A stretch of 64,000 bases of DNA from an uncultured Bdellovibrionales bacterium (GTDB lineage: Bacteria; Patescibacteriota; Minisyncoccia; Moranbacterales; UBA2206), in NCBI GenBank assembly GCA_964406815.1, contig CAYOTC010000001.1, forward strand, positions 70 through 64,069, written 5' to 3'. This document shows, one piece after another, positions 155-63,447 of the stretch (position 1 is the stretch's first letter; every line of letters starts with the position of its first letter). The notes beneath the pieces are model-generated. The model was given only the letters and a program-made list of their open reading frames with translations, was not told the origin of the DNA and ran no database searches. Position numbers and translations under genes: made by a program.

Positions 155-3100
155 ATGAATCTCAAAAAGAAAACCAAATTAGGTTCCAGGTTTAAATTTT
201 ATAAGGGAAGCAGTTTTAGGGCTGGTTCTTTTTTGTTTTCGAAAAAGATAATTCTTGTATTAGCTTTGTTGATTTTATCGGCAGGGTTTCTTAGTTTTGC
301 TGGAAATGCACAAGCAATGGCTGGCGATTTGGATTTGAGTTTTTCTCCCGGAGTATTAAATGGTGCAAATGATTTGATACAATCCACAAATATCCAATCC
401 GACGGAAAAATATTAATCGGGGGATTTTTTACAACATACAATAATTACTCTATGTATTGCTCGTCTCAATTCTGATGGAACGTTGGATACATCTTTCAAC
501 CCTGGCACTGGAGCAAATAATAGTATATATGCCGTTGCTATCCAATCCGACGGAAAAATATTAATCGGAGGATCTTTTTCCTCATATAACGGCACAATAA
601 TAAATCGCATTGCCCGTCTAAATTCTGATGGTTCGCTTGATACATCTTTTAATCCCGGTATCGGCGCAAGTAGCACTATTTATTCTCTTGCCATCCAATC
701 TGATGGAAAAATATTAATTGGAGGAATTTTTTCCTTGTATAACGGTACGACAAGAAATCACATTGCCCGTCTAAATTCTGATGGATCATTAGATACATCC
801 TTTAACCCCGGCACTGGCTCAAATAGCGATATTAAATCTCTTGCCATCCAATCTGATGGAAAAATATTGATTGGAGGATATTTCACCTCATATAACGGGA
901 CTACAAGAAACTATATTGCCCGTCTAAATTCTGATGGATTATTAGATACGTCTTTTGATCCCGGCACTGGTGCAAGTAGTTTTATTTATTCTTTCTTCAT
1001 CCAATCCGATGGAAAAATAATTACTGGCGGAAACTTTACTTTATATAACGGCACGACAAGAAACCACATTGCCCGTCTAAATTCTGATGGTTCGCTTGAT
1101 ACATCCTTTGATCCAGGTACAGGCGCAAATTATGCCGTAAACTCAATTATCGTCCAATCCGATAAGGTGTTAATTGGAGGAGCCTTTACATCATATAATG
1201 GCACGACAAGAAACCACATTGCCCGTCTAAATTCTGATGGTTTACTTGATACATCCTTTGACCCCGGCACTGGCGCAAGTGGCACAATTAATTCCCTTAT
1301 CATCCAATCTGATAGCAAGCTAATTATAGGTGGGAGTTTCGGCTCATATAGTGGTGCATCTATAAATTGCATTGCTCGTCTTGATTCTGATGGAACACTG
1401 GATACTTCCTTTAATGTTAATAGTACAGGAATAAATAGTTATATAAATTCTGCAGTCATTCAATCCGACGGAAAAATATTGATTGGAGGAGCTTTTACGT
1501 CACATAATGGAATCTCTAGAAACCGCATTGCCCGTCTAAATTCTGATGGTTTACTTGATACATCCTTTGACCCCGGCACTGGCGCAAGTGGCACAATTAA
1601 TTCCCTTATCATCCAATCTGACGGGAAAATACTGATTGGTGGATCATTTTCGAACTATAATGGCATATTTAGAAACAGCATTGCTCGTCTCAATTCCGAT
1701 GGTTCACTGGATACATCTTTCAATCTTGGTACTGGTCCAAATAACTATACTCAGTCGATTGCCATTCAATCGGACGGAAAGATAGTTATTGGAGGAGGTT
1801 TTACGACATATAATGGCACAACCAGAAACTATATTGTTCGCCTAAATTCTGATAGATCATTGGATACATCATTTGATCCTGGTGCAGGAGCAAATAATAG
1901 TGTAACTTCTGTTGCTATACAATCTGACAGTAAAATATTAATCGGAGGAGGTTTTACAACATATAATGGTACAACTATAAATCGCATTGCTCGCCTTAAT
2001 TCCGATGGATCATTGGATACATCTTTTAATGTTGGTACGGGAGCGAGCAGTACTGTTCAATCTATTACCATTCAATCCGACGGAAAAGTACTAATAGGAG
2101 GATCTTTTACGTCATATAACGGCACAACTATAAACCGTATCGCTCGTCTAAATTCTGATGGTTCGCTTGATACATCTTTTAATACTGGTACTGGCACAAA
2201 TGCTTCAATTTATTCCATCAACATTCAATCCGACGGAAAAATATTAATCGGAGGAGGTTTTTCATCATATAACGGAACGGCTAGAAATAACATTGCACGG
2301 ATTAATTCTGATGGATCATTAGATAATGATTTTAACCCCGGAGCAGGAGCAAATAACTATGTGGCTTCTATTGCTCTCCAATCCGACGGAAAAGTGATCG
2401 CTGCAGGAGGTTTCAACAGCTATAACGATATTCCTGTCGCATACATCGCCAGAATCAACAATCCTCCGGTTACCACTCCAACTGTTACAACTAATGCGGT
2501 TTCTTCGATTTCATACACCATCGCCACAGGCAACGGAAATCTGACGTCAACCGGAGACGGTTCCACAACTAGATATATCCAATGGGGAATATCCTCCGGA
2601 ACATATACCTCAAGCTGTAACGCCGGAGCGACAACTTCTACCGGAAACTATTCTTGTTCTATGACTAGTCTTACTGCTGGCACGACATATTATGTCCGAG
2701 CTTATGCTACTAATTCCTCCGGAACCGGATACGGAGACGAAATAAGTTTTTCAACAACCGCCATAGCTGTTCCTACGGTAACTACTAATACTGTTACATC
2801 GATAAATTATACTACGGCTACTGGAGGAGGAAATGTCACGGCAACTAATGGCGCTAATCCGACAATCAGAGGAGTTGAATGGGGCACAGCTACTGGCTCT
2901 TACACTAACTCTTGTAATGCTGGAGCAGGAGGAATCGGAGCCTATACTTGCTCTATGACCAGCCTTACTTCCGGAACAACATATTATGTCAGAGCTTTTG
3001 CTACCAACTCCGCTGGAACCGGTTATGGAACAGAAATTAGCTTCAACACTTTATCTGGTTCTCCAACCGTTACTACTAATTCCACCACCAGCATTACTTC

Positions 3101-4373
3101 CATAGGAGCTACTGGCAATGGAAACATCACTAATACCGGAGGCAATAATCCCGAAAGATTTATCCAATGGGGAACAACTTCAGGAATCTATACCAGTGAA
3201 TGTACCGCCGGAACCGGAGGAACTGGAACGTATTCTTGTGCAATGAACAGTCTTACTCCTGAAACTACTTATTACTATCGAGCTAAAGCAACTAACTCAG
3301 GAGGAACCAGTTATGGAGATGAAAGTTCTTTTACTACTATTCCCGAAGGCATAATTATTCCCGATCCAATCCCTCAAGACATGACTGACGCTTACAATGA
3401 AGGATATATATCTATAGGAACCGGAACTCTTAATAGCACTAACCAAGTAACTACAAATCTTGACCTGACTATCACATCCAATAATGGCCAAGCCACTCTT
3501 CCCGTAAACACCCAAATCACCAACACCGACTCAGGCAACATCGATATGTCTCAATTCTCCATCTCTAACGTAACCACCCAGACCAAATCAACAATCTCCA
3601 CCACCAGAGGCTCAATCGAGATCGGTATCCCCAATACTAACTTAACTTTCTCCCAACCGATAGAAATATCAATAAGTGTAGGAACTCAATACAATGGAGA
3701 TATCCTGACTATCCAATCCCGATCCTACAACCAATCAGATTGGACCGATGAAGGCACCTGCACCGTCACCAACGGAATCTGCAGCTTCACTACCACCCAC
3801 GCCACCACCTATACCGTGAACGGAGACGGAACTATTACCGGAGAGACCAACATCAATACCAATCTCCCCATAGAATCAACCATCTCTCTCAGTTGTCCCG
3901 ATTCATTGGATCTAACCTCTATCACCGGCACCGGACAATCAACAATCGATACAAGCAACGAAGCTACCTGCAACATCGCCACCAACAACTCCAACGGCTA
4001 CAAGCTGGAATGGCAAGCTTCCAGTAATAATATGCAAAATTCCAATTCCGATACTATCAGTTCCTATACCCCAATAACTCCCAATGCTCCCGAACCTTGG
4101 CTCATCGACAATACCGCAAGTGAATGGGGAGCCAGACTAAAGAGCACCTCTACCGATAACGATACATCCACTTGGGGATTAAGTGATGGATATGACGGAA
4201 ACTGGTTAAACATAGATAACTCCACTCCATTTGAAATCATAAGAAGAACAGAAGAAACCGACCAATCCGGATCAGATGAAATCATCCAATTCGGAGCGGA
4301 AGTCGGATCAAACAAATTCCAACCTTCTGGAACTTACACTACTACAGTTACTATGACGGCGACGACGTTGTAA
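155..4373 (+). CDS. Giant secreted repeat protein. N-terminal signal peptide, then about 14 tandem ~51-aa repeats (LDTSFNPGTGA..IQSDGKILIGGSF.SYNGT.RN.IARLNSDGS; delta-60/TIGR02608-like from memory), then 3 FN3-like ~97-aa repeats and a T/S/N-rich C-terminal region. The two track ORFs (155..475 and 483..4373) look like one gene split by a frameshift near 440-482.
   Basis: Track ORFs 155..475 (signal peptide MNLKKKTKLGSRF...AGNAQA) and 483..4373. The first repeat unit is cut short (TYNNYSMYCSSQF*) while the other frame continues IARLNSDGTLDTSFNPG, matching the repeat consensus. Nucleotide periodicity 153 nt (about 330..2460) and ~290 nt x3 (about 2470..3345). Confidence 0.6.
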
Positions 4374-12131: not shown

Positions 12132-13970
12132 ATGACTCAAATAAATTTTTTCGCCAAAACTAATTTTAGGAACCAGGAAAGGATTTTCGGAATCAAGGAG
12201 GATGATCGCCGCCGACATATGTATATTATCGGAAAGACCGGTATGGGAAAATCCAACTTGCTGGAGAATATGGCGATTCAGGATATTCGCAATGGCAAAG
12301 GAGTATGCGTTGTTGATCCGCACGGAGAATTTGCGGAAAAGATGCTTCGCGCCATTCCAGCCGAACGGATAAATGATGTGGTTTATTTCAATCCGGCGGA
12401 CGCGGAATTTCCGGTGGCTTTTAATATTTTGGAAGCGGTCGAAGAAGATAAAAAAAACTTGGTCGCTTCCGGAATGATGGGGGTTTTCAAAAAAATCTGG
12501 CCGGACGTGTGGAGTCCGAGGATGGAATATATTCTTAACAACACTATTCTTGCACTTTTGGATTATCCTGGTTCGACGATGCTTGGAGTGAATCGGATGA
12601 TGAGCGATAAAGATTACAGAAAAAGAGTCTATCCGAAAATCAAAGATCCGGTGGTGAAATCTTTTTGGATAAATGAGTTCGACAAATGGGAAGACCGATT
12701 TCGAAAAGAAGCGGTGGCAGCGATCCAAAACAAAGTCGGACAATTCTTGTCCTATACCTTAGTCCGTCATATTATCGGTCAGCCAAAATCGACCATCGAT
12801 ATGCGAGAGATTATGGATAATCAGAAAATCTTGATTGTTAATCTCTCCAAAGGCAGGATCGGGGAAGACGCGATGCGGCTTTTGGGAGGAATGATAATCA
12901 CCAAAATCCAGCTGGCGGCGATGAGTCGGGTGGAAATTACGGAAGAGGAAAGAAAAGATTTCTATCTTTATGTCGACGAATTCCAGAATTTTGCGACGGA
13001 ATCTTTTTCCAACATCCTTTCTGAAGCGAGAAAATATCGCTTGTGTTTGATTTTGGCTCATCAATATATTAATCAGTTGATATTTGACGGAAATTCGACA
13101 GTGCGTGATGCAATTTTTGGAAACGTCGGAACACTCATATCCTTCCGGGTCGGTGCGGAAGACGCGGAACATCTTGAGAAGGAATATGAGCCGGTTTTTA
13201 TGATGAACGACATTGTCAATCTTTCGAAATATAATATTTATCTGAAATTGATGATCGACGGAATTGCCGGTGACGCTTTTTCCGCGACGACGCTTCCGCC
13301 GATTTCCATCGCTGATACGAAAGATAATGAAGAAAAGGCTATTCGGATTTCACGGGAACGGTATGGAAAATCCAGAAAGGAAGTTGAAGATAAGATCGCG
13401 CGTTGGAGCGGTATGGGCGGATATGACGAGCCGGAAGTGATGGTTGATAAAAAATCTTCTGAAGTTGAAATGAAAGACGAATTTGTTCCGGAAATTAACA
13501 ATATCAAAAATGTAAGTATAGTGAAGGAAACTCCCTCAGCTAAACCAGCGGTGGCTGTTTCTGAGAAAAAAATTCCTGCCGTGTCTTCGGAGGCAAAAGA
13601 GGAGAAGGTGATGTATGAAGCGACTTGCGATACCTGCGAAGAAAAGATAATGGTGCCGTTCAAGCCGGACAAATCTCGGCCGACTTTCTGCCGGGAGTGT
13701 CTTAAGGATTACCAGCGTCTACGGGCGAGAAAGCAGGAAGAGATGCAGCAAACTGCGAGAAAGAATTATCCTCCGAAAATATCAAACAGCAATCCTAAGG
13801 CTGAAGAAAATGATTATCAGCCGGGCGTTGTTGTTCCGAAAGACAAACCGATGTCCCTTTCTCAGATGTCGCATATCGCGCCGAAAAAATTCAAGTCGCC
13901 AAAAAGAAATCCCAATATCGATTTGGGAGGGCTAAGAGATTTAATAAATAAGAGTCGGAAAGAAAATTAA
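12132..13970 (+). CDS. FtsK/HerA/TraD-superfamily P-loop ATPase (DUF87/AAA_10-like) with a C-terminal CxxC...CxxC zinc ribbon and a basic tail.
   Basis: Walker A IIGKTGMGKSNLL. DPHGEF motif typical of HerA/DUF87 ATPases. Walker B LYVDEFQNF. C-terminal CDTCEEK...FCRECL. Confidence 0.55.
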   Translation: MTQINFFAKTNFRNQERIFGIKEDDRRRHMYIIGKTGMGKSNLLENMAIQDIRNGKGVCVVDPHGEFAEKMLRAIPAERINDVVYFNPADAEFPVAFNILEAVEEDKKNLVASGMMGVFKKIWPDVWSPRMEYILNNTILALLDYPGSTMLGVNRMMSDKDYRKRVYPKIKDPVVKSFWINEFDKWEDRFRKEAVAAIQNKVGQFLSYTLVRHIIGQPKSTIDMREIMDNQKILIVNLSKGRIGEDAMRLLGGMIITKIQLAAMSRVEITEEERKDFYLYVDEFQNFATESFSNILSEARKYRLCLILAHQYINQLIFDGNSTVRDAIFGNVGTLISFRVGAEDAEHLEKEYEPVFMMNDIVNLSKYNIYLKLMIDGIAGDAFSATTLPPISIADTKDNEEKAIRISRERYGKSRKEVEDKIARWSGMGGYDEPEVMVDKKSSEVEMKDEFVPEINNIKNVSIVKETPSAKPAVAVSEKKIPAVSSEAKEEKVMYEATCDTCEEKIMVPFKPDKSRPTFCRECLKDYQRLRARKQEEMQQTARKNYPPKISNSNPKAEENDYQPGVVVPKDKPMSLSQMSHIAPKKFKSPKRNPNIDLGGLRDLINKSRKEN

Positions 13971-13991: not shown

Positions 13992-15164
13992 ATGAATAAT
14001 AATCAAAAACATTTGAATCATGTAGATAAAGTTAATTTGGGGTCCTACTATACTCCAGAAATTGTTGTTGATTTGACTTATTCTATCTTGTATAAAAATA
14101 TTTCTAATATTAAGAGCTTTACAATTTTAGATTCATCTTGTGGTTATGGATCATTTTTGGAAAAAAAAGATTTAATAAAAAGATTTGTGGGTGCGGATAT
14201 TGATAATATAGCTATATTGGAAGCTACGAAAAAAAATAAACACGTTGATTTTATTTGCCAGAATTCACTTATGAATGTGTGCAGGGATAATCTTACTATT
14301 AAGAAAGAAGAAAAAATTATAGTTATAGGAAACCCTCCATATAATGATACAACCTCTATAATTCGTAGCTCTATAAAAGACGCATCTATTCAGAATAAAA
14401 TTGATTTAGATATAAAAACCAGAGATTTAGGAATGTCTTTTTTGCTTTCTTATGACAAACTTAAGGCTGATTATGTTTGTGTTTTACATCCATTATCTTA
14501 TTTAATTAAAAAAGCTAATTTTTCTCTACTCTCAAAATTTTCTAGAAATTATAAATTAATTGACGGATTAATTATAAGTAGTCATGAATTTTCCGAGACT
14601 TCTCGTGGAATAGCCTTTCCGATTTTAATTGCTCTTTACAAAAGAGATGAAATAGGGATGGGCTATGATTATATTCAAAATTATCAGTTCAAAGTAAAGG
14701 ATGATGGAGTCTTTCGACTAAAAGATTTTGATACGATAGTAAACTATGTTCAAAAATATCCAAATAAAAAATTTTTAAATAAAAATGATAAACCAGTAGC
14801 TAAGTTTTGGACTTTGAGAGATATAAATGCTCTTAAACGAAACCGGACTTTTATTAATGAGGATACTTATAATACCGTTTATGTGTTAATGGAAAAACTC
14901 CCTTATTATTGTTATATTGATGTGTTTAAACAATATGCTGATAAAATGCCATATTTTATTGGAAATTGCGATATTATTATTGATAATAATAAATTTGGAA
15001 AAATAAAGGAATGCTTTATCGATCAAAGTATTCACACAAATCCAGTTTTAAAAAATAAGTTTAATTTTAGAAAAATTCCTAATGCTAAACTAAAAATAGA
15101 TAATTATTTTAAAGAATTATTAGGAAGTAAGCTAGGTAAAAAATATGCCAAAAATTTTAATTAA
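13992..15164 (+). CDS. Gamma-class N6-adenine DNA methyltransferase (M.TaqI/Eco57I-like architecture).
   Basis: Motif X GSYYTPEIV. Motif I ILDSSCGYGSFL. Motif IV IVIGNPPYN. C-terminal ~270 aa would be the target-recognition domain. Very AT-rich relative to flanks. Confidence 0.7.
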   Translation: MNNNQKHLNHVDKVNLGSYYTPEIVVDLTYSILYKNISNIKSFTILDSSCGYGSFLEKKDLIKRFVGADIDNIAILEATKKNKHVDFICQNSLMNVCRDNLTIKKEEKIIVIGNPPYNDTTSIIRSSIKDASIQNKIDLDIKTRDLGMSFLLSYDKLKADYVCVLHPLSYLIKKANFSLLSKFSRNYKLIDGLIISSHEFSETSRGIAFPILIALYKRDEIGMGYDYIQNYQFKVKDDGVFRLKDFDTIVNYVQKYPNKKFLNKNDKPVAKFWTLRDINALKRNRTFINEDTYNTVYVLMEKLPYYCYIDVFKQYADKMPYFIGNCDIIIDNNKFGKIKECFIDQSIHTNPVLKNKFNFRKIPNAKLKIDNYFKELLGSKLGKKYAKNFN

Positions 15165-15906
15165 TGAAATTGAACATAAAATTGAAGTGCCAATTTTACT
15201 AACTGCAGTAAGTGGAAAAATTCGCATTAAGAATCGTTCAATCGTAAATGAATACGGAACTCCTGTCGCAGTTAGACGAGACGGTTTTGCTTTAAACAAC
15301 TATGTTGAATGGCAAATCGGCTATGATGTTGTCAAAAAGGAAGCTGATAAATTAGCAGAATCATCACTGCCAGAAACAGAGTTTATTGGTGCAAATGGTA
15401 AAAACAAAGCACTTTACGAGTTATCAGAGTATATTTGGTATTTTCATAAATGGAATATTATATCCAGAGAAGAGCTAGAGAGTGTTGCTAATTACCTCAA
15501 TTCGATACTAGCTAATGACTTGATTGATAATAACTCTGAATTACAGATTGATCGTAGTCATCCGATAGCAAAAAATATAAATGGATTTGATTTTGAGTAC
15601 ACCCAAGTTAAATATCCTCTTTTAATTTACAAATTCAATGGATATGAAATAGTTACCGAAATAAAAATTACCGAAAAACAATATGCAGTTGGCACTCAGC
15701 CAATGCTATATTTATGTTTTTCGATTACAGAATTAAAAGCTAGAACTAACTTAGTCGGACGAACCGCCGAAATGAAAGAAATAGCTCACTTTGAAATTAC
15801 AGAAAGTAATATTAAAGTATTTTTGGAAATGTTAAAAATGTTTGGCACTCTATCTGATAGTCATAGACATGATATTTTACAAATTATAGATGTAATATTG
15901 ACTTAA
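15145..15906 (+). CDS. Hypothetical protein. Candidate cognate restriction endonuclease, by operon context only.
   Basis: Overlaps the MTase stop by 20 nt and has the same extreme AT-richness. No clear PD-(D/E)xK motif is visible by eye. Confidence 0.3.
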   Translation: MPKILINEIEHKIEVPILLTAVSGKIRIKNRSIVNEYGTPVAVRRDGFALNNYVEWQIGYDVVKKEADKLAESSLPETEFIGANGKNKALYELSEYIWYFHKWNIISREELESVANYLNSILANDLIDNNSELQIDRSHPIAKNINGFDFEYTQVKYPLLIYKFNGYEIVTEIKITEKQYAVGTQPMLYLCFSITELKARTNLVGRTAEMKEIAHFEITESNIKVFLEMLKMFGTLSDSHRHDILQIIDVILT

Positions 15907-36194: not shown

Positions 36195-36443
36195 ATGTAT
36201 TATGTATATTTGCTAAAAAGTCGTAAAGATCAGGGATATTATATAGGGTTTTCAGAAAATATTGATTTTCGATTTCAACAACATTGTAACGGATTGGTTG
36301 TTTCCACAAAAAATAGAAGGCTTCTGGATTTGATTTATTTTGAATCATATTCATCAAAAGAGTTGGCACAAGAAAGGGAGAAGAATCTTAAAAAATTCGG
36401 ATCGGCCTACAGCGGACTTTTGAAAAGATTGTGCGAAAAATAA
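36195..36443 (+). CDS. GIY-YIG nuclease-family small protein (82 aa).
   Basis: MYYVYLLKSRKDQGYYIGFSENIDFRFQQHCNG matches the GIY...YIG...R..H...N core of the GIY-YIG superfamily. Confidence 0.65.
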   Translation: MYYVYLLKSRKDQGYYIGFSENIDFRFQQHCNGLVVSTKNRRLLDLIYFESYSSKELAQEREKNLKKFGSAYSGLLKRLCEK

Positions 36444-36617: not shown

Positions 36618-37178
36618 ATGAATCTTGAACAATCAAAGGAAACAAAAAAAACAAAAGAAAAATTACTTGAAATAACTGTTGAAACTAAACGGCTTATTTT
36701 AAAACCAGTATCTTTAGAATATAAGAATATAATCTTTTCAGAATTTACTGATTATACGACAAAGTTTATGTATCCCTCAGCACCAAAAGATGTAGCAGAT
36801 ACTGAAAAATTTATTAAAAAGTCAATGGAGGATATAAAAAAAGGGACAGATTTCGTAGCAAGTATTTTTGATAAGAAAACAAACGATTTTTTAGGTGGTG
36901 TAGGAATTCATCATATAGATACAAAGACGCCTGAATTGGGGATATGGATCAAAAGATCAGCTTATGGCAACAAATATGGGCAAGAGGCAGTGGCTGGTTT
37001 AAAAAAATGGGCTGATAAGAATTTAGAATATGAATATTTATTATATCCAGTTGCGAAAGAAAATATTGCTAGCCGAAAAATTCCAGAATCTATGGGCGGT
37101 AAAGTGGTAAGGGAATTCATTGGTAAAAAAGAAAACGGAGAGGATATGGAAGAAGTGGAGTATAGGATTTATAAATAA
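36618..37178 (+). CDS. GNAT-family N-acetyltransferase (RimJ/RimL-like).
   Basis: TKRLILKP...LGGVGIHHID...LGIWIKRSAYGNKYGQEAVAGL matches GNAT motifs A/B. Confidence 0.65.
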   Translation: MNLEQSKETKKTKEKLLEITVETKRLILKPVSLEYKNIIFSEFTDYTTKFMYPSAPKDVADTEKFIKKSMEDIKKGTDFVASIFDKKTNDFLGGVGIHHIDTKTPELGIWIKRSAYGNKYGQEAVAGLKKWADKNLEYEYLLYPVAKENIASRKIPESMGGKVVREFIGKKENGEDMEEVEYRIYK

Positions 37179-37550
37179 GATTAGGTTAAATTTGAAATAT
37201 AGATTATTTCATTTTTTTCATAAATAATTCTAACATCATCAACTAACCTGCGTATCTTAAATTCGGACTAATTAGAGGCTTTTTAGAAGCCTCTTTTCAT
37301 TATAATTTGACTAGTGATTTTTTAAGTGTTAGTCTTTCGGCAGTTCTTAAAATTTTTAGTATTGATATGAAAAGTATTGTTTATCTAAAATTAAAATATC
37401 AAAGGGAGGAAAGACAGAATGGATGATGCAGATTTAAAAGAAATAGCGGCAGAAAATCTTATGAAGTTGGAGGATAATACTTATCCCGGGAGAGGAATTA
37501 TCACGTGAATAAGCGAAGATGGGAAAGATCTTCTTCAGATTTACTGGATT

Positions 37551-38165
37551 ATGGGCAGGAGCTCAAGTAGTCGTAATCGCAGGTTTATTGATGATGGCGA
37601 CGGATATATGCGGACAGATTATGCTGATTCATCAAAAAAATCTGACGATTCGAATATATTCTATTCTGCAATGACGGAAGGTGGCGGTATTTATGTTGTA
37701 AGCAATGGTCATCAGACAAAGGATATTTTCCAGGCGCTTTCTAATGGGTTCGGTCATTTTATAGCCATTCAGGATTGGAATTATGAAAACGATCATCCGA
37801 ATTTTACTCCGATAATTTCATCTTCTTGTATGCTTATACTTGGAGATGAAGGCACGGATTGTTTCGTTGATATATCCATTATTAAAAAATCCCGATTCGG
37901 AACCGCCGGTTCTGAAAGACAGCTTTTTAACTATGCTGATTTTATTCCCGGATTAGGATATTGCATCACAACATATCAATGTGATGGAAACCCGTTGTCG
38001 TCATTTGTAGGCGAGCCATATCTTTTGCCACTTGTCGGTTCGGCCGAACAAGCTGCGCAAAATATTTGGAACATTTTGAATGAGGCCAATCGAGTGGCTA
38101 TTGCGATAAAATCAATCAGTTTGAAAAATGGAGAAAGTTCCATTTTTATAATCAATAAGTATTGA
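37551..38165 (+). CDS. Hypothetical protein. Probably the C-terminal 204 aa of a longer product starting at ATG 37419 and containing an in-frame TGA at 37506-37508. There is a faint, memory-based resemblance to archaeal-type IMP cyclohydrolase PurO (VVSNGHQT).
   Basis: Same reading frame from 37419 (strong SD aaaGGGAGGaaagacagaATG) through TGA and into 37551. ATG 37551 has no SD. Confidence 0.45.
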   Translation: MGRSSSSRNRRFIDDGDGYMRTDYADSSKKSDDSNIFYSAMTEGGGIYVVSNGHQTKDIFQALSNGFGHFIAIQDWNYENDHPNFTPIISSSCMLILGDEGTDCFVDISIIKKSRFGTAGSERQLFNYADFIPGLGYCITTYQCDGNPLSSFVGEPYLLPLVGSAEQAAQNIWNILNEANRVAIAIKSISLKNGESSIFIINKY

Positions 38166-38291
38166 TTTAATTACAGGAGAGTTGGAATAACAGGCAATTT
38201 GTCATTGGACAAATTGCCTGTTTTTAGAATTTTTTATGAAAAATATGCTATAATAAAAGCATATTTTTTAATGGAGAAATAGATAAATCGC

Positions 38292-40592
38292 ATGTCTAAG
38301 CATGAATATTCAAAAGAAGTTTGTGATAAGCTTTTTAAGATAGCTAATAATCCGATTTTAAAAATAGGTTATCGGCGCACTCGTTATGAATCCGGAGATA
38401 AACTAAATGTTGAAATTGAGAGTGTTTTTCCAGCGGTTAGGGGGCTGGCAATTTTTGGGGTTGAAAAATTTATAGGCGGAGGTTTCGCGGGACAAGTTTA
38501 TCGCTGTCGATTGGAAAAATTGGAAATTTCAGGAGAAAAATATATTAAGGAACTTGAATTGGGTAAGTTATACGCGATAAAAATAAATGTTCCACCTTCC
38601 GGATTTTCTTTATGGTTTAGAAATGTTATCTATTGGATTGCCTTTCAGGGACCTTTTGGCGCCCAGCATAATTTAGGCGCTTGCAGATCAGGACTTCTTT
38701 TGCAAAAACTTATCCGTCGCGGAGCAAAATTAAAATTCGGGAGAGAAACTGCCGTTAAGGATGCGATAGCGTCTTTTTATGATCCGCAAATTGGTTCTTA
38801 TGGTGAAATAACAGAGTGGATTGAAGGTCGGATGTGGCTTCTTGAAACTGACTGGGAAATGAAAGGTCGTAAGGAGTGGAAAACAATTCAACTCGATCAG
38901 ACAGGTAGCCCGGAATATATTGCTAAGAGACGTTTTATGTCGGAAATGAAAAATCTTCTTCATGAAATGGGTGCAATTGAGCTTGCAAGACAATATGAAT
39001 GGTGGACGATGAAGAGTCAAACCAACTCTATAAAACGCACGGATATTTTGGATTCTTTCGGTCCTGGTAATGGCCTCTGCGCGATTGATTTTCGCTCAGG
39101 ATTGGCTCTTTTGCCATTTTTTCCAATGAGTCCTGTTGATTTCAAATTGATTTTTGAAGGATTAGTTCGAGGATCAATCGTTCAATTTGACCGTTGTGAT
39201 ACACGTAAAATGCGTGAATTTTTTGAAAAAAATTATTCTAATTTTTCCGATCTTCAGCCGGCAATTGAAGAATTCTTCAGACAAAATGAATTTTATAGAA
39301 GATCTGTTCCTGATATTGCTCATCAAGGAACGAGACTATTTTACGATTCAGGACTCAGAAATGATGTTAAAAATGGTCTTATTGGTGGTTATTTTTCAAA
39401 AAATATTATTGATAATAATTTTTTTGAAAGTTTGAAAAATGATAAATTTAGATTTTTTGTTTTTTATCTTCTTGGTATTTTTCCTATAGTAGGGAAATTT
39501 ATCAGGAAAATTTGGGGCAATCGTATTTATCGGGAACATTTTCTGAAGATATTTTCATCTTCTAGCTATATAAATATTTTTCTTAAATCTCATGTTGCTG
39601 GAAGACTGATTGATTGGTATCGCGCAGGAAGAATTGATGAAAGGCATATCGAATTTCTTTTAAGATTTCCTTTTTTCTTTACCGTTGAAAGAATTATGTT
39701 GGGTTTTCTTCCTTCTTCCTTACATATTATTTTTATAAGGCCTCTAAAAATATGGCACAAAATTAGAAATTGGCTTATCTTTATTAAGAAATTTATTAAT
39801 ATTTCTGAATTTCGTGAAAAATGGTTTCTTAATGAAATAGAACTTGGCAAAAGAGATGGAATGATTACGGAAAAAGAATTTTTAAAACTTAAAAATTCAA
39901 TCAGAGATCCTTTTGTTGTAAACTACCTCAGATGTCTCGGGATTCACTTTTCATCGGTTATAATAACCAGGCTTGTTGGGATTTCAGCTGGATTATTTTT
40001 GTCTGCCTGGGTTCTTTTTGATGGTCACTCTTGGGCCGAATCATTGACAGTTTTTGGCCTCACTTTGATATTTTTTCAGTTGATTCCAATTTCTCCAGGG
40101 TCGTTGTTTCGTGGGGGATTTGTCATATATATGATGATAAAAGAGAAGAATATCAAAAATTATATAATAGCTGCTCCGGTTTCTTTTTTGAAATATGTTG
40201 GATATCTGGCGTTTCCTCTTCAGATGGTGGCTTCTTATCCACACCTGGCGCGATTTATGGCGAGCCGATGGTCTACTAATATAGCTCATCATATTCCGGT
40301 TTTTGGCGAGAAGGGAGCGCTTCTGGAACATTGGGTTTTTGATATTTTCTTTAATTATCCTCAGAAAATTTTCAGATGGTTGAAATTCCGCATACATTTT
40401 GTGCTTGATGGATGGATGATTTTCGGTTTTGGAATTATAACTTCGCTATTTTATTTTTGGCCACTGAAAATTTTTGATCCAAAGATTTATATAAACATCA
40501 TCCTTTTTTTAATAGTTATTTTTATTTTTCCAAGAATAGTTTTTTATCCAATAATTAAAAAAAGAATTGAAGAGGAAAATCCAGTTCGCTAA
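38292..40592 (+). CDS. Fusion protein: N-terminal atypical protein-kinase-like domain (ABC1/UbiB-like, divergent) plus a C-terminal polytopic membrane domain (8 or more predicted TM helices).
   Basis: Gly-rich loop GGGFAGQVYRC with ...YAIKI (VAIK-like). DSFGPGNG...CAIDFRSG resembles the HADPHPGN...IDFG catalytic/DFG segments of UbiB-family kinases. Hydrophobic C-terminal half. Confidence 0.45.
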   Translation: MSKHEYSKEVCDKLFKIANNPILKIGYRRTRYESGDKLNVEIESVFPAVRGLAIFGVEKFIGGGFAGQVYRCRLEKLEISGEKYIKELELGKLYAIKINVPPSGFSLWFRNVIYWIAFQGPFGAQHNLGACRSGLLLQKLIRRGAKLKFGRETAVKDAIASFYDPQIGSYGEITEWIEGRMWLLETDWEMKGRKEWKTIQLDQTGSPEYIAKRRFMSEMKNLLHEMGAIELARQYEWWTMKSQTNSIKRTDILDSFGPGNGLCAIDFRSGLALLPFFPMSPVDFKLIFEGLVRGSIVQFDRCDTRKMREFFEKNYSNFSDLQPAIEEFFRQNEFYRRSVPDIAHQGTRLFYDSGLRNDVKNGLIGGYFSKNIIDNNFFESLKNDKFRFFVFYLLGIFPIVGKFIRKIWGNRIYREHFLKIFSSSSYINIFLKSHVAGRLIDWYRAGRIDERHIEFLLRFPFFFTVERIMLGFLPSSLHIIFIRPLKIWHKIRNWLIFIKKFINISEFREKWFLNEIELGKRDGMITEKEFLKLKNSIRDPFVVNYLRCLGIHFSSVIITRLVGISAGLFLSAWVLFDGHSWAESLTVFGLTLIFFQLIPISPGSLFRGGFVIYMMIKEKNIKNYIIAAPVSFLKYVGYLAFPLQMVASYPHLARFMASRWSTNIAHHIPVFGEKGALLEHWVFDIFFNYPQKIFRWLKFRIHFVLDGWMIFGFGIITSLFYFWPLKIFDPKIYINIILFLIVIFIFPRIVFYPIIKKRIEEENPVR

Positions 40593-40804: not shown

Positions 40805-41995
40805 ATGGAAAAGATCGAAAGATTTTTATCAGATTATTCCTGGCTTCTTAAGTCGGGGATATGGCTGGCGCTTGTCCTTTGGGCGGCACAGTTCAGTTGG
40901 GTAATTTCTGAGATTTATAAAGAGGAGAGCTGGAAGGTTGAAAGGAAACTCGAATTGGAAGAAAAATTTTCCATAGAGTATCACAAAATTTATAAAAGAT
41001 TACTGAAGGAAGCTAAAGCTAAGGGAGAGTTTTATGGTCCCAAGGATTACTTTGATGACTATAAGGAAATAAAAATCCTGCAGAATGAAATCGGAATCGA
41101 ATATGATTCTGAACCGTTTATGCTTTCAGATATTGGGGAATTGAATTTGCTGATGAGGGGAAATATAGGAGAAGGCAGAAAATACTCTTGGGATGATGTT
41201 TCAAGCGAATCTAGAAAACTTCATGAATGGTTGAATCGTGGCGGAGCAGCAGGGGATGAATTTTATGCCGATTTGGATAAATTACCCTGGAGTTATAAAC
41301 TTGGAAAAATTTGGAGTTGGTTCTCTTCTTTGTATTGCCGAGGATTTTTTCTGGTGATATTTTTGTATCTTATCAGGATGTCTGAACGGGAAGGAGTTCT
41401 AAGAATATTTTTTTCTGAAAAGAAAAGGTTCTTCCTTGCGATTATTCTTTGGCCGGTAATGGTCTTTAAATATCCCTTTAATATTTTTAGGGAAATAATT
41501 ACTGAAGCTGAATACCGGAGAAGAAAAGAAAAACTCTTCTCTTTCCTCAGTGGTGAAGAAAAAAGACTGATTCGGGAAGTTTCAAGAAATTGTTTATTCA
41601 AAAAGCAGCAATTTGGTTTCTTTGAATTAAAGCCAGTCCATTCTTTTGCGGGAGCTTTAGTTGTAACTTTGTTTTTTGCAGTATTGCCTTATTCGAACAA
41701 GGTGGAAGCCAGGCCTCTTTATGATTGCAATCAAATTTCTGTTTCTCATGAGGAATTCAGTGATCATCTCGCAAGGATGGAAATTGATGAAGATGATGAA
41801 TTGTCATCTTCCTTCGGAGGATTTTCAGTGGATTGTTTAGTAGGAACATTTATTCAGGAATATTTTCCGCTAGTTGCAAGGTTCTTCTGTTTAATGCGGA
41901 AGTTTCATTTGCAGGAAGTCTTCCGAAAAATTGCACATATCCCGCTTTATGGCTGTTTAAATTTAGTGTCTAATTATTATGAATGCACAATTTAA
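40805..41995 (+). CDS. Hypothetical membrane protein.
   Basis: TM segments (GIWLALVLWAAQFSWVI; FFLVIFLYLI; FLAIILWPVMVF; ALVVTLFFAVL). No motif. Confidence 0.35.
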   Translation: MEKIERFLSDYSWLLKSGIWLALVLWAAQFSWVISEIYKEESWKVERKLELEEKFSIEYHKIYKRLLKEAKAKGEFYGPKDYFDDYKEIKILQNEIGIEYDSEPFMLSDIGELNLLMRGNIGEGRKYSWDDVSSESRKLHEWLNRGGAAGDEFYADLDKLPWSYKLGKIWSWFSSLYCRGFFLVIFLYLIRMSEREGVLRIFFSEKKRFFLAIILWPVMVFKYPFNIFREIITEAEYRRRKEKLFSFLSGEEKRLIREVSRNCLFKKQQFGFFELKPVHSFAGALVVTLFFAVLPYSNKVEARPLYDCNQISVSHEEFSDHLARMEIDEDDELSSSFGGFSVDCLVGTFIQEYFPLVARFFCLMRKFHLQEVFRKIAHIPLYGCLNLVSNYYECTI

Positions 41996-42041
41996 ATAGC
42001 CGAAGAAAAAAAGCTTTTCTCCGGCATTAAAGGAGAAAAAT

Positions 42042-42686
42042 ATGCGCAAATTAATTATTGTAGTAGTATTATTATTAACTATTATTATAACTGTCTCAGT
42101 TTCAGCAGAAGACAAAAAAATTTCCACCACTATCAACCTGAAAAATGACTGGGGTGATGCTTCAGGAAAAACGGTTGATACCCAAAGAGCCTTCATCTTC
42201 TGGAACTATAAGGATGTTGGCGGAGGCGGGATAGATATGGCTATAACACGAAGGAAGGATTATTTTCAAGTCGATCCGTTTCTGACATTCAATCGAGGAT
42301 CGTGGTATTTCGTTGGCGGAGCGTCCGTTGATAATTTTTCCCAGTATATCCAAGGCGGTTTCTGGTATATGAATTCTATTGGAAAAACATTTGTTTTTGC
42401 TGATATCAGAAATTATTTTGCCACCGGGGGAAATGCCAAAGATTATGTTGAAGGATTTTTTGAAGTAACGCATCCAATTGGAAAACGTTTTTTTATGGGA
42501 GCCGATTTGGATTATGTTCTTTGGTGGGAGGGAAGTCACAAGTGGCTTCTTGTAGGGCCGATCATTGGCATGAAGTTCAATAAGAATATTTCATTTTATA
42601 CGAGAATTTCTCGCGAGTGGAATATTATTGATGATAAATCCGACGGTTCTAACCGGTTCCGTTTAGGGATGACTATCTCGTTTTAA
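42042..42686 (+). CDS. Secreted beta-rich protein with a signal peptide and a C-terminal aromatic residue (OMP-barrel-like signature).
   Basis: Signal peptide MRKLIIVVVLLLTIIITVSVSA. Alternating hydrophobic pattern. Terminal ...RFRLGMTISF. Confidence 0.4.
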   Translation: MRKLIIVVVLLLTIIITVSVSAEDKKISTTINLKNDWGDASGKTVDTQRAFIFWNYKDVGGGGIDMAITRRKDYFQVDPFLTFNRGSWYFVGGASVDNFSQYIQGGFWYMNSIGKTFVFADIRNYFATGGNAKDYVEGFFEVTHPIGKRFFMGADLDYVLWWEGSHKWLLVGPIIGMKFNKNISFYTRISREWNIIDDKSDGSNRFRLGMTISF

Positions 42687-42793
42687 AAACGACGGGCAAC
42701 TTGTCATTAGACAAGTTGCCCGTTTTTGTATCTTTAAAAACAAAAAAATTGGCGCCGGATTTGCCATTTGGTGTATAATGAAAGCGATAAATA

Positions 42794-43714
42794 ATGATAA
42801 AAAATATGCTCGAAAAAATGGAATTTACAAAGAAAGCTGAAAAGCCTGGCGAAAAATTGGCTCGTTTTATGGAGGATATTTCCCATAAATTAAACAAAGA
42901 GATTTTCGAATATGGTGAAGAAAAGCCTCTTTTGGATAAGAATAACTCTATTAATATGGAGGCGTTCGGATATTCCGATGTCGAAGTTGACAAACAGAAA
43001 GTTTTTAACAAAGATATTGAATGGAGCGGAGCTACTGATCCGGAAATCATGGAGTTCTATGGAGGGAAATATGGAACTGTGAGCACTAGCGATGTAGTTA
43101 GGGAATTTCGCAAAAACAAGGAAAATAATCCCAGCGCCCAATTGGAAAAGGCAATCACGGGACTTTTACATAAAGTTTTAGGATCGGAATTTATGGTTAT
43201 GCGTTCATCGGACTATGATGATTATTTTTACGGAATCGATAACGTGATTGTTAACCGGGAAACTGGAGATGTGATTTGCGCTTTTGATGAGGTTCACGAT
43301 GAGAAAGATGGTAAGCGTCAGTTGAAGAAAATCAAGAAAATAAAAGATGTTGCGGGAAGAGGTGGAGCAACCTTGAAATACGGAATAACTTTTGAAAAAG
43401 ACGAGGTGACCGGAAAAAACAAGCTGGTAAAAAAATCCATCAAAAATATTCCGGTTTTCTATCTTGGACTTTCGAGCAAAGAACTTTCCGGACTTGTTTC
43501 CCGGATGGATTTTTCTTCTGGCAGTGAAGCTAATTCTTTCGAGTTGGAAATATTTGGAAATCTTGTCGAATCATTGAAAGGTCAGATTGGAATTTTGGAA
43601 AAATATGAAATTGAAGAAGGAAAAATCATCCATCATGAAGTTAAGAAAAAACTGGACAAATTCAAGATTTTATTGTCTGAATTGATTGAATCAAGGCTTA
43701 AAAAAGCCGCTTAG
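42794..43714 (+). CDS. Hypothetical protein.
   Basis: ORF only. No motif. Confidence 0.35.
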   Translation: MIKNMLEKMEFTKKAEKPGEKLARFMEDISHKLNKEIFEYGEEKPLLDKNNSINMEAFGYSDVEVDKQKVFNKDIEWSGATDPEIMEFYGGKYGTVSTSDVVREFRKNKENNPSAQLEKAITGLLHKVLGSEFMVMRSSDYDDYFYGIDNVIVNRETGDVICAFDEVHDEKDGKRQLKKIKKIKDVAGRGGATLKYGITFEKDEVTGKNKLVKKSIKNIPVFYLGLSSKELSGLVSRMDFSSGSEANSFELEIFGNLVESLKGQIGILEKYEIEEGKIIHHEVKKKLDKFKILLSELIESRLKKAA

Positions 43715-47300: not shown

Positions 47301-47489
47301 AAAAGATAGTTTTATTAATGTTGAGGCTCTGGGACGAAGTTGGAACTTATTTATCTCTTAGAGTTGAATAATTTTCTTGGTATATATTATGATTTCTATA
47401 TGTTTTTATTTTCTCAAAATATGGTGTAAAATAAAGAAAATAGCAATTTCTTTTAATTAAGGGGGTTTTATAAAATAAATTTAAAAAAT

Positions 47490-48197
47490 ATGGCAGATTT
47501 AAAAAAGGATATTATTGGCATCACTATCGGAATAAGATTTGGCAGATCATTTAGAATGTCTGATATATCCGGTGAAATAATTGATAATATCTTATACAGC
47601 GAAGAAACTCCATTTGGAACAGATTTTTTTCCTCAAGTTCAAGAAAATTCAAAGAGAGAGAAAACTTTATTTAATCCTAGTACCTCCGAATATCTAAGAA
47701 TCAATACCGATGATTTAATCTTGGGAATAGAGATTAACAATAATTTCGAAGAAAAATTTAATTGGCTTAAGGATGATGTTATAAAATATTTAAAAGATAT
47801 CCTTTTCCACAAATATAATATAAAAAATATCCAGAGGTTAGGTATTATCTTTTCTCATAAAATCGCTAAAAATAAAAAACTTAGCGAAGCAATAAATATA
47901 CTTACTGCAAGCAATGTATCTGATCCTGATAATATAAGCATTTCTTTTTCAAAAAAAGCTTCAACTGAGGAGGCTCTTATTAGAAAAGGTGTTAGTGATT
48001 ATAAAAATAGAATTTATAATTTTTACGATTTAAAAGAGTCACTTAGAGTGGATCTCGATTATCAATACTATTACGAACCAGCTATTGAAGATTTGCGAGA
48101 ATGTTTTACTGAAAAAATACTTGAAAATTCTAAGAAATTCCTAGAAAGTGATTTTCATAATTGGTTAAATGCATATAAAAATGAAGAAACCGAATAG
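47490..48197 (+). CDS. Hypothetical protein (AT-rich island cargo).
   Basis: SD aaGGGGGttttataaaataaatttaaaaaatATG. No motif. Confidence 0.3.
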   Translation: MADLKKDIIGITIGIRFGRSFRMSDISGEIIDNILYSEETPFGTDFFPQVQENSKREKTLFNPSTSEYLRINTDDLILGIEINNNFEEKFNWLKDDVIKYLKDILFHKYNIKNIQRLGIIFSHKIAKNKKLSEAINILTASNVSDPDNISISFSKKASTEEALIRKGVSDYKNRIYNFYDLKESLRVDLDYQYYYEPAIEDLRECFTEKILENSKKFLESDFHNWLNAYKNEETE

Positions 48198-48648
48198 ATA
48201 TAATCGGGTCGGAAAAGATTGGAACGAAAAAGAAGCTTATAAAAATTTTTTATCTTCAAAATTTTATTTAGATAAAACTGAAGAAGATTCTGTTGATATA
48301 AGCAAAACAGACGAGTCATCTTTCAATGAAGAAGAGATGAAAACTCCAAATGTTCAAAAAAAATCAAGTCGCTTAAAAGTGAAAGATTTCTTTTTAGAAA
48401 ATTTTGCTATATCAATATTTTCAGGTATACTAATAATTATTTTCGGTGGTTACGTTTATATTAATCGTGAGCAAGGAATACAGGGATCACAAATAAGCTC
48501 TTTAAAAGAAGATGTAAAAGATATTAAAGATGACATTAATAATAATGAAAAAAATCAGACTGAGATCAAAGAGAATTTTAATATTTTTAAAGCTCAAATA
48601 ACCACAGAACTAGATTTTTTAAAAAAACAATTAAATGCTAAAGAATAA
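48169..48648 (+). CDS. Hypothetical protein with one TM helix and a C-terminal coiled coil.
   Basis: TM FAISIFSGILIIIFGGYVYI. Heptad-like C-terminus. Confidence 0.3.
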   Translation: MHIKMKKPNRYNRVGKDWNEKEAYKNFLSSKFYLDKTEEDSVDISKTDESSFNEEEMKTPNVQKKSSRLKVKDFFLENFAISIFSGILIIIFGGYVYINREQGIQGSQISSLKEDVKDIKDDINNNEKNQTEIKENFNIFKAQITTELDFLKKQLNAKE

Positions 48649-48653
48649 AAAAT

Positions 48654-62527: not shown

Positions 62528-62627
62528 TTGATTTGTCATTCCGAATTTATTTCGGAATCTGGAGATTATGAACCCCGTCTGCCGACTAGGCAGGTAAGTT
62601 CAGAGTGATACAATGAACATTTTTTTG

Positions 62628-62706
62628 CTCCGCGGTCCCGCTCAAAAGCGGGACCGCGGCTTTCATTTCTGCCCAAAGCCCCAGTGGGCCTGTTTTGGTT
62701 TTGGCT
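62628..62706 (+). terminator. Terminator region after murF: perfect 12-bp GC hairpin, then a second hairpin with a T-rich tail.
   Basis: CCGCGGTCCCGCtcaaaaGCGGGACCGCGG...GCCCAaagccccagTGGGCctgttttggttttgg. Confidence 0.55.
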
Positions 62707-62756
62707 TTATATTTTTCTTAACAAATATTAATAATATTAAAGGAGTCGATAAAAAA

Positions 62757-62781
62757 GCAATATGCAAAAAATGCATATTGC
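62757..62781. promoter_or_regulatory. Perfect 10-bp palindrome upstream of the DUF3800 gene (candidate operator).
   Basis: GCAATATGCAaaaaaTGCATATTGC. Confidence 0.35.
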
Positions 62782-62820
62782 AAATTCAGATAAAATTATT
62801 GCGGGTTTATTGGAAATCAT

Positions 62821-63447
62821 ATGGCTTATATATTTCTGGATGAAAGCGGAGATTTGGGTTTTAAGCAAAAATCAAGCAAATGGTTTTTCACTATTGTTCT
62901 TATTGATAATCATAAAAAAATAGAAAAAGTCATAAAAAACATCAGGAAAGGACTTAAGAAAAAATTCAAACTCAAGGAATTACATGCATATCATGCGGAT
63001 TCAATAACCAAACATAGGATGCTTAAAAAGCTTTCAGAGATAGAAGATTTGAAAGTTCTTTGTGTGATTTTAAATAAGAAAAAAGTTTATATAGATTTGC
63101 AGAATCAAAAAAATTATCTTTACAACTATACCGCCAATATTTTATTGGATAGATTGCACAACAAAAAGATCATCAGAACTGATGAATCGATAAGTTTATA
63201 TATAGATCAGAAAGATACCAGCAAATTTATCAGAGAAAATTTTGAAAAGTATCTCAAGGAAAATCTGACGAAAAGAGGGAATAATGGAATTATTGAAATA
63301 AAAATAAAACCATCGCACACGGAGAAGTGCTTGCAGGCAGTTGATTTTGTAAGTTGGGCGATTTTCAGGAAATATGAGAAAGGCGATTACGAATATTATG
63401 AAGATATAAAAGACAGGATTATCGAAGAAAATCTGTTATTTTCGTAA
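62821..63447 (+). CDS. DUF3800-family protein.
   Basis: N-terminal MAYIFLDESGDLGF is the hallmark of DUF3800 (PF12686). Confidence 0.55.
   Translation: MAYIFLDESGDLGFKQKSSKWFFTIVLIDNHKKIEKVIKNIRKGLKKKFKLKELHAYHADSITKHRMLKKLSEIEDLKVLCVILNKKKVYIDLQNQKNYLYNYTANILLDRLHNKKIIRTDESISLYIDQKDTSKFIRENFEKYLKENLTKRGNNGIIEIKIKPSHTEKCLQAVDFVSWAIFRKYEKGDYEYYEDIKDRIIEENLLFS

Follow-up and report, generated by a model that had tools for sequence, protein, structure and literature searches.

An in-frame TGA at a conserved glycine codon of a bacterial-type purO gene: a probable recent nonsense mutation

Bacterial homologues of PurO have already been described, and the 14 active-site residues of the enzyme are reported to cluster toward its N terminus (PMC6486802). 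The side chains involved in catalysis by PurO are those of an Arg, a Glu and a Tyr (Kang et al. 2007, cited after PMC6797443). The decoding of UGA as Gly has been reported only for the Gracilibacteria/JAEDAM01/SR1 lineage (PMC13293708). The locus described here touches on both subjects, as it has the features of a bacterial-type purO gene and carries an in-frame TGA where its homologues encode Gly.

In the window, i.e., the whole stretch of 64,000 nucleotides that was analysed, a GGGAGG sequence precedes the ATG at 37419, which opens a frame of 29 sense codons, MDDADLKEIAAENLMKLEDNTYPGRGIIT, that runs into a TGA at 37506-37508 (+). Past this TGA the same frame remains free of stops for 218 further codons until a second TGA, and the internal TGA is the sole interruption of the frame that starts at ATG 37419. 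An earlier note on this DNA had described the Shine-Dalgarno-backed start, the in-frame TGA and the continuing frame, all with correct coordinates, and had argued against a frameshift, which agrees with the presence of one and the same frame on both sides of the TGA. The first canonical in-frame start downstream of the internal TGA is the ATG at 37551, which gives rise to an ORF of 204 aa; no GGAGG-like sequence was found ahead of it, bearing out the same note's remark that this ATG has no Shine-Dalgarno sequence. The 204-aa ORF is the one predicted by gene callers (P0001), and this truncated call, which belongs to the genome itself (NCBI, on a contig of 123,263 nt, and Logan), was the sole 100% match in the protein search described below. 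The features of the locus are collected in Table 1.

Table 1. Features of the purO unit and of its boundaries, with positions in the window.
Feature	Position	Strand	Remarks
GNAT acetyltransferase gene	36618-37178		Upstream of purO; PF13302 match
Terminator-like hairpin	37274..37294	+	9-pair stem followed by a T-run; ends the upstream GNAT gene; 5' boundary of the purO unit
Sigma-70-like promoter candidate TTGATA-18-TAAAAT	37362..37391	+	10/12 consensus matches; a match to the consensus only, of a kind not commoner than in shuffled sequence
Shine-Dalgarno GGGAGG	37404..37409	+	Direct reading of the sequence; 9 nt before ATG 37419
purO 5' segment	37419..37505	+	29 codons; N-terminal helix and strand b1, YPGRG motif
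In-frame TGA	37506..37508	+	At a nearly invariant Gly (residue 30), just past strand b1; presumably derived from GGA
purO 3' segment	37509..38162	+	218 codons without stop or frameshift; 21/21 invariant family columns kept
ATG of Met45	37551..37553	+	Start of the 204-aa ORF P0001; without Shine-Dalgarno sequence; end of strand b2
True purO stop, TGA	38163..38165	+	Homologues end 0-12 residues past the aligned ...INKY; terminator downstream
Intrinsic terminator	38189..38225	+	Perfect 15-bp hairpin, 3' arm running into TTTTT; 23 nt past the TGA

The intrinsic terminator downstream of the gene has a minimum free energy of -27.3 kcal/mol (z -6.9), and none of 200 shuffled sequences folded as well. 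The gene stands alone between the GNAT acetyltransferase gene, which has its own terminator, and a gene for a 766-aa protein, and the scanned ORFs of the 64-kb window included no further pur gene. The 766-aa protein, encoded directly 3' of purO (38292-40592, +), is apparently membrane-spanning and has no Pfam match, and the same lack of a Pfam match applies to the three ORFs that follow its gene (40805-43714).

The conceptual read-through product of 248 aa matched the PF07826 profile with 108.7 bits (E 3.7e-31), above the cut-off of 28.1 bits. The match extends over residues 22-234 of the product and over profile positions 1-189 of 192; as it begins ahead of the TGA, at residue 22, the part before this codon is not just open by chance. 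The 29 residues before the TGA include the invariant Y22, G24 and R25 together with the nearly invariant N20, P23 and G26, and the 204-aa ORF alone also matches PF07826. Among 5.8 billion proteins searched, 134 relatives were found, and, P0001 aside, the best identities were 51-54%. The 119 aligned homologues are ~240-260 aa long and all of them cover the N-terminal segment, i.e., their alignment with the product begins before the TGA; none of them starts only at the counterpart of Met 37551, which would have refuted the reading of the earlier note. An AlphaFold2 model of the read-through product, computed from 120 aligned sequences, had a pLDDT of 96.4 and a pTM of 0.93, and its top three Foldseek matches in the PDB were the PurO structures 1KUU, 2NTK and 2NTM, all with a probability of 1.00 (E 4e-11 and TM 0.74-0.78, normalised to the target, for the archaeal PurO MTH1020). 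The resemblance to PurO, which the earlier note had put forward only as a loose one, is therefore upheld by the profile match as well as by the fold match. The product keeps each of the family's 21 invariant columns, including R25, R47, R54, Y82 and E123, whose mapping onto the published catalytic residues is uncertain, and the nearly invariant Arg of the TPRI motif is Ile in this gene (R132I). Judged by its sequence, the locus is a monocistronic bacterial-type purO, predicted to encode the IMP cyclohydrolase of the FAICAR-to-IMP step of purine synthesis.

We then compared the interrupted codon with its counterparts in homologues. The TGA falls on the column of the last residue of the motif YPGRGIIxG, which is Gly in at least 90% of the sequences in alignments of 29 and 120 sequences. 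At the DNA level, the codon at this position is GGN in 80 out of 80 other homologous loci (GGC in 29, GGA in 27, GGT in 13 and GGG in 11), and a stop occurs in none of these 80 loci, none of which is closer than ~54% identity; the TGA was seen only in this genome. The earlier proposal that the TGA aligns with a conserved position thus holds both in the protein alignments and in the DNA of the homologous loci, with Gly as the conserved residue. No sequence of more than 54% identity was present in the protein database, among the best 80 GTDB loci or in the JGI metagenomes, and homologues from the GTDB scan were at most 45% identical. Given GGN in all 80 loci and GGA in 27 of them, a single G-to-T change explains the TGA. 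Within the window, 36% of the sense codons that are one step away from TGA are GGA, which is also the commonest Gly codon of this AT-rich DNA (646 of 1,219 Gly codons). As no other codon one step from TGA is so common, a stop that falls on a Gly codon is unremarkable, and the likeness to code 25 amounts to a weak coincidence.

The window uses the standard genetic code. Its 63 non-overlapping ORFs end in TAA (44), TAG (10) or TGA (9), and TGA ends at least seven ORFs besides purO. Full-length Pfam domain matches were obtained for TopA, RelA/SpoT, DprA, AlaRS, TyrRS, S11, S4, RpoA, S2, EF-Ts, L10, DnaX, MraZ, RsmH, FtsI and MurF. As the earlier note had stated, murF is ended by TGA and the long genes are intact. 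On the coding strand, only two pairs of in-frame ORFs are joined by a TGA, namely the two parts of purO and a 141-aa ORF followed by ftsI. The 141-aa ORF has no Pfam match, ends 9 nt before ftsI and, by its position only, occupies what we take to be the place of ftsL in the dcw cluster; we read the 141-aa ORF and ftsI as two separate genes. In the 64-kb window, purO is the only gene with an in-frame TGA inside it. A global reassignment of UGA (code 4 or 25), which the earlier note had already thought unlikely, is ruled out within the window by the stop usage, the intact housekeeping genes, the scan for TGA-joined ORFs and the terminator that follows purO's own TGA. The window encodes five tRNAs (Thr, Tyr, Thr, Trp(CCA) and Gln), none of them with a UCA anticodon. 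The best named matches of TopA, at 69-74% identity, are from Candidatus Moranbacteria / Parcubacteria, which makes the organism a Moranbacteria-like CPR bacterium outside the UGA=Gly lineages.

We consider it probable that the TGA is a real and recent GGA-to-TGA nonsense mutation that inactivates purO, the gene being either a young pseudogene or a null allele dominant in the sampled population. A single G-to-T transversion would have made a TGA of the GGA codon for the conserved Gly at residue 30, translation from ATG 37419 would stop after 29 residues, and PurO function would be lost. In the model, residue 30 lies just after strand b1 (residues 26-28) and Met45 closes strand b2 (residues 37-45), and a product from ATG 37551 would be devoid of helix 3-19, strands b1 and b2 and the invariant residues Y22, G24, R25 and Y42. 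With the N-terminal helix, both strands and these invariant residues missing, and with active-site residues that cluster N-terminally, the truncated product would be expected to be inactive.

The age of the mutation can be approached through the state of the remaining gene. There is no second stop or frameshift in purO, and the Shine-Dalgarno sequence, the promoter-like site and the terminator are all kept. Because an unconstrained frame of 218 codons would soon be closed in a genome of 35% GC, we infer that the mutation is recent. Of the 61 columns with at least 90% conservation, the protein deviates at 7 (the TGA, L79N, I81F, P124N, R132I, P194S and V230I); for the same columns, the median in the other 119 sequences is one deviation, and only seven sequences deviate as much. 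This gives a mild hint that constraint was perhaps relaxed before the TGA arose. The overall divergence of purO is about that of its nearest relatives (about 1% more), and the relative-rate comparison is uninformative on decay.

The earlier note had left three options for the TGA, of which the pseudogene is the one that we favour; an assembly error is less likely, given the identical Logan sequence, and recoding found no support. An error would mean that the base is a sequencing or consensus mistake or a minority strain variant caught in the assembly, with GGA and an intact purO in the living population. The genome is a MAG (a 123-kb contig), the rest of purO is flawless and functional-looking, and a single-base substitution is the smallest possible artefact, all of which would fit this explanation. 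However, a Logan contig from run SRR8925738, the product of an independent assembly, carries the same base and is 100% identical over positions 37400-38321 (922 of 922 nt, TGA included), possibly from the same reads as the MAG, which argues against an artefact of the assembler or of polishing; furthermore, the lack of any other interrupted frame in 64 kb suggests that the assembly is not generally error-prone. Overall we regard an error as unlikely. An apparent split gene at 62613-63447, examined as a sign of poor assembly, turned out to be merely overlapping ORFs that are unrelated in sequence.

Slightly less credence is given to a functional purO that is expressed by read-through of the UGA, either inefficiently, by near-cognate tRNA-Trp, or by means of a dedicated suppressor, e.g., a tRNA-Gly(UCA), encoded outside the window. 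The stop lies exactly on Gly, the amino acid for which UGA stands in code 25, there is no further decay and the expression signals are intact. Indeed, with no second lesion and 21 of 21 invariant residues kept, a gene sustained by read-through would look the same. The internal stop has the context UGA-A, whereas the leaky context in E. coli is UGA-C and UGA-A is not classically leaky. The 96 nt around and after the TGA showed no structure better than that of shuffled sequence (z -0.6) that could be stimulatory, and a scan of 37180-38300 against Rfam (E up to 1) returned nothing relevant. Against read-through also stand the TGA stops of purO itself and of the at least seven other ORFs, the restriction of in-frame TGA to this one gene of the window, the lack of a suppressor among the five tRNAs of the window and, as shown above, the weakness of the Gly coincidence. 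The Moranbacteria-like affiliation of the organism likewise disagrees with the confinement of UGA=Gly to Gracilibacteria/JAEDAM01/SR1 (PMC13293708). We regard as very unlikely the more specific proposal that this one UGA is decoded as Gly or read through, keeping PurO active, while the other UGAs act as stops. If true, UGA would be decoded ambiguously or in a site-specific way in an organism that does not belong to the Gracilibacteria/SR1 clade, which might give a glimpse of an early stage on the way to code 25.

Alternatively, the 204-aa ORF from ATG 37551 could be a real and functional product, an N-terminally shortened PurO, as its prediction by gene callers (P0001) and its persisting PF07826 match might suggest. 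This ATG has no Shine-Dalgarno sequence, in contrast to the GGGAGG at ATG 37419, and the N-terminal segment that it omits, with helix 3-19, b1, b2 and the four invariant residues, is present in 119 of 119 homologues. The archaeal enzyme itself starts at the equivalent of Y22 (MYLGR), and the active-site residues are concentrated N-terminally (PMC6486802), and we find a functional short form highly improbable. Insertion of selenocysteine has nothing but an in-frame UGA codon in its favour and can practically be dismissed, the homologous position being Gly in 80 of 80 loci and never Cys or Sec, with neither a SECIS-like hairpin after the UGA (z -0.6) nor an Rfam match.

A nonsense mutation in purO is an ordinary feature that matters little beyond annotation; its wider interest would depend on a demonstration that the UGA is decoded, to which the evidence does not point. 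For annotation, the 204-aa P0001 in public databases represents a purO of 248 codons that is disrupted and was called in truncated form, and its entry should carry a flag as a pseudogene or disrupted gene. Provided that the mutation is real, the locus would provide a small example of ongoing loss of purine-metabolism genes in a reduced CPR genome.

Several other features of the window were recorded. A low-GC block (0.29-0.32) at 47400-52900 contains genes for a Rep protein (PF23343, 50392-51312) and a large serine recombinase (51345-52889), and the 3' end of the recombinase gene overlaps a tRNA-Gln(ttg) on the opposite strand (52802-52874); the block looks like a mobile element integrated at tRNA-Gln. 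Within this putative element, just upstream of an ORF at 49352-49954, lies a LOOT RNA (RF03000, 49252-49374, +) with a full-length Rfam match (83.2 bits; gathering score 46.4). The region at 13992-15906, where GC is lowest in the window (0.275), holds a likely restriction-modification pair made up of an R.Pab1 endonuclease (PF09522, E 2e-43) and a weak match to an Eco57I-like methylase, and is preceded by a gene for a VirD4/TraG-like coupling ATPase (12132-13970). A stand-alone GIY-YIG ORF of 82 aa (36195-36443, +; PF01541, E 1e-13) is situated inside a tRNA cluster, between tRNA-Thr(ggt) and tRNA-Trp(cca). At 483-4373 (+), a 1,296-aa protein with ~13 DUF5122 beta-propeller repeats (E 3.5e-191) is encoded, and the 106-aa ORF before it contains one DUF5122 repeat, lies in another frame and ends in TGA.

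Compared with bacterial-type PurO (PF07826), which is listed in PMC6486802 and is also found annotated for CPR MAGs of Falkowbacteria, Andersenbacteria and Taylorbacteria, the read-through product has the same full-length match to the domain, a similar length of ~245 aa, the N-terminal helix before YPGRG and 21 of 21 invariant residues, and is likewise encoded by a stand-alone gene. It differs in the TGA at the conserved Gly30, in an identity of at most 54% to any known sequence, in the lineage-specific substitutions L79N to V230I listed above and in the lack of a nearby pur gene in 64 kb. Other CPR-like contigs also carry intact homologues as stand-alone genes, in unrelated contexts and without synteny to this locus, and a purL-type FGAR amidotransferase gene is present within a few kb of one of them. 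The archaeal PurO MTH1020 of Methanothermobacter thermautotrophicus (1KUU, 2NTK, 2NTL and 2NTM) shares the Ntn-hydrolase-like fold, the motifs YxGR at the start, SNG, YExD and TPRI and a match at the level of sequence profiles. In contrast, its sequence identity is only 18-19%, the bacterial proteins have an extra N-terminal helix of ~20 residues, and the Arg of TPRI is Ile in this purO. Finally, code 25 of Gracilibacteria/Absconditabacteria offers a parallel in that a UGA stands at a Gly position of homologues in a CPR bacterium, but here purO is the only such case among about 57 ORFs, UGA also serves as a terminator, in purO itself as well, and the organism is from another CPR lineage, Moranbacteria.
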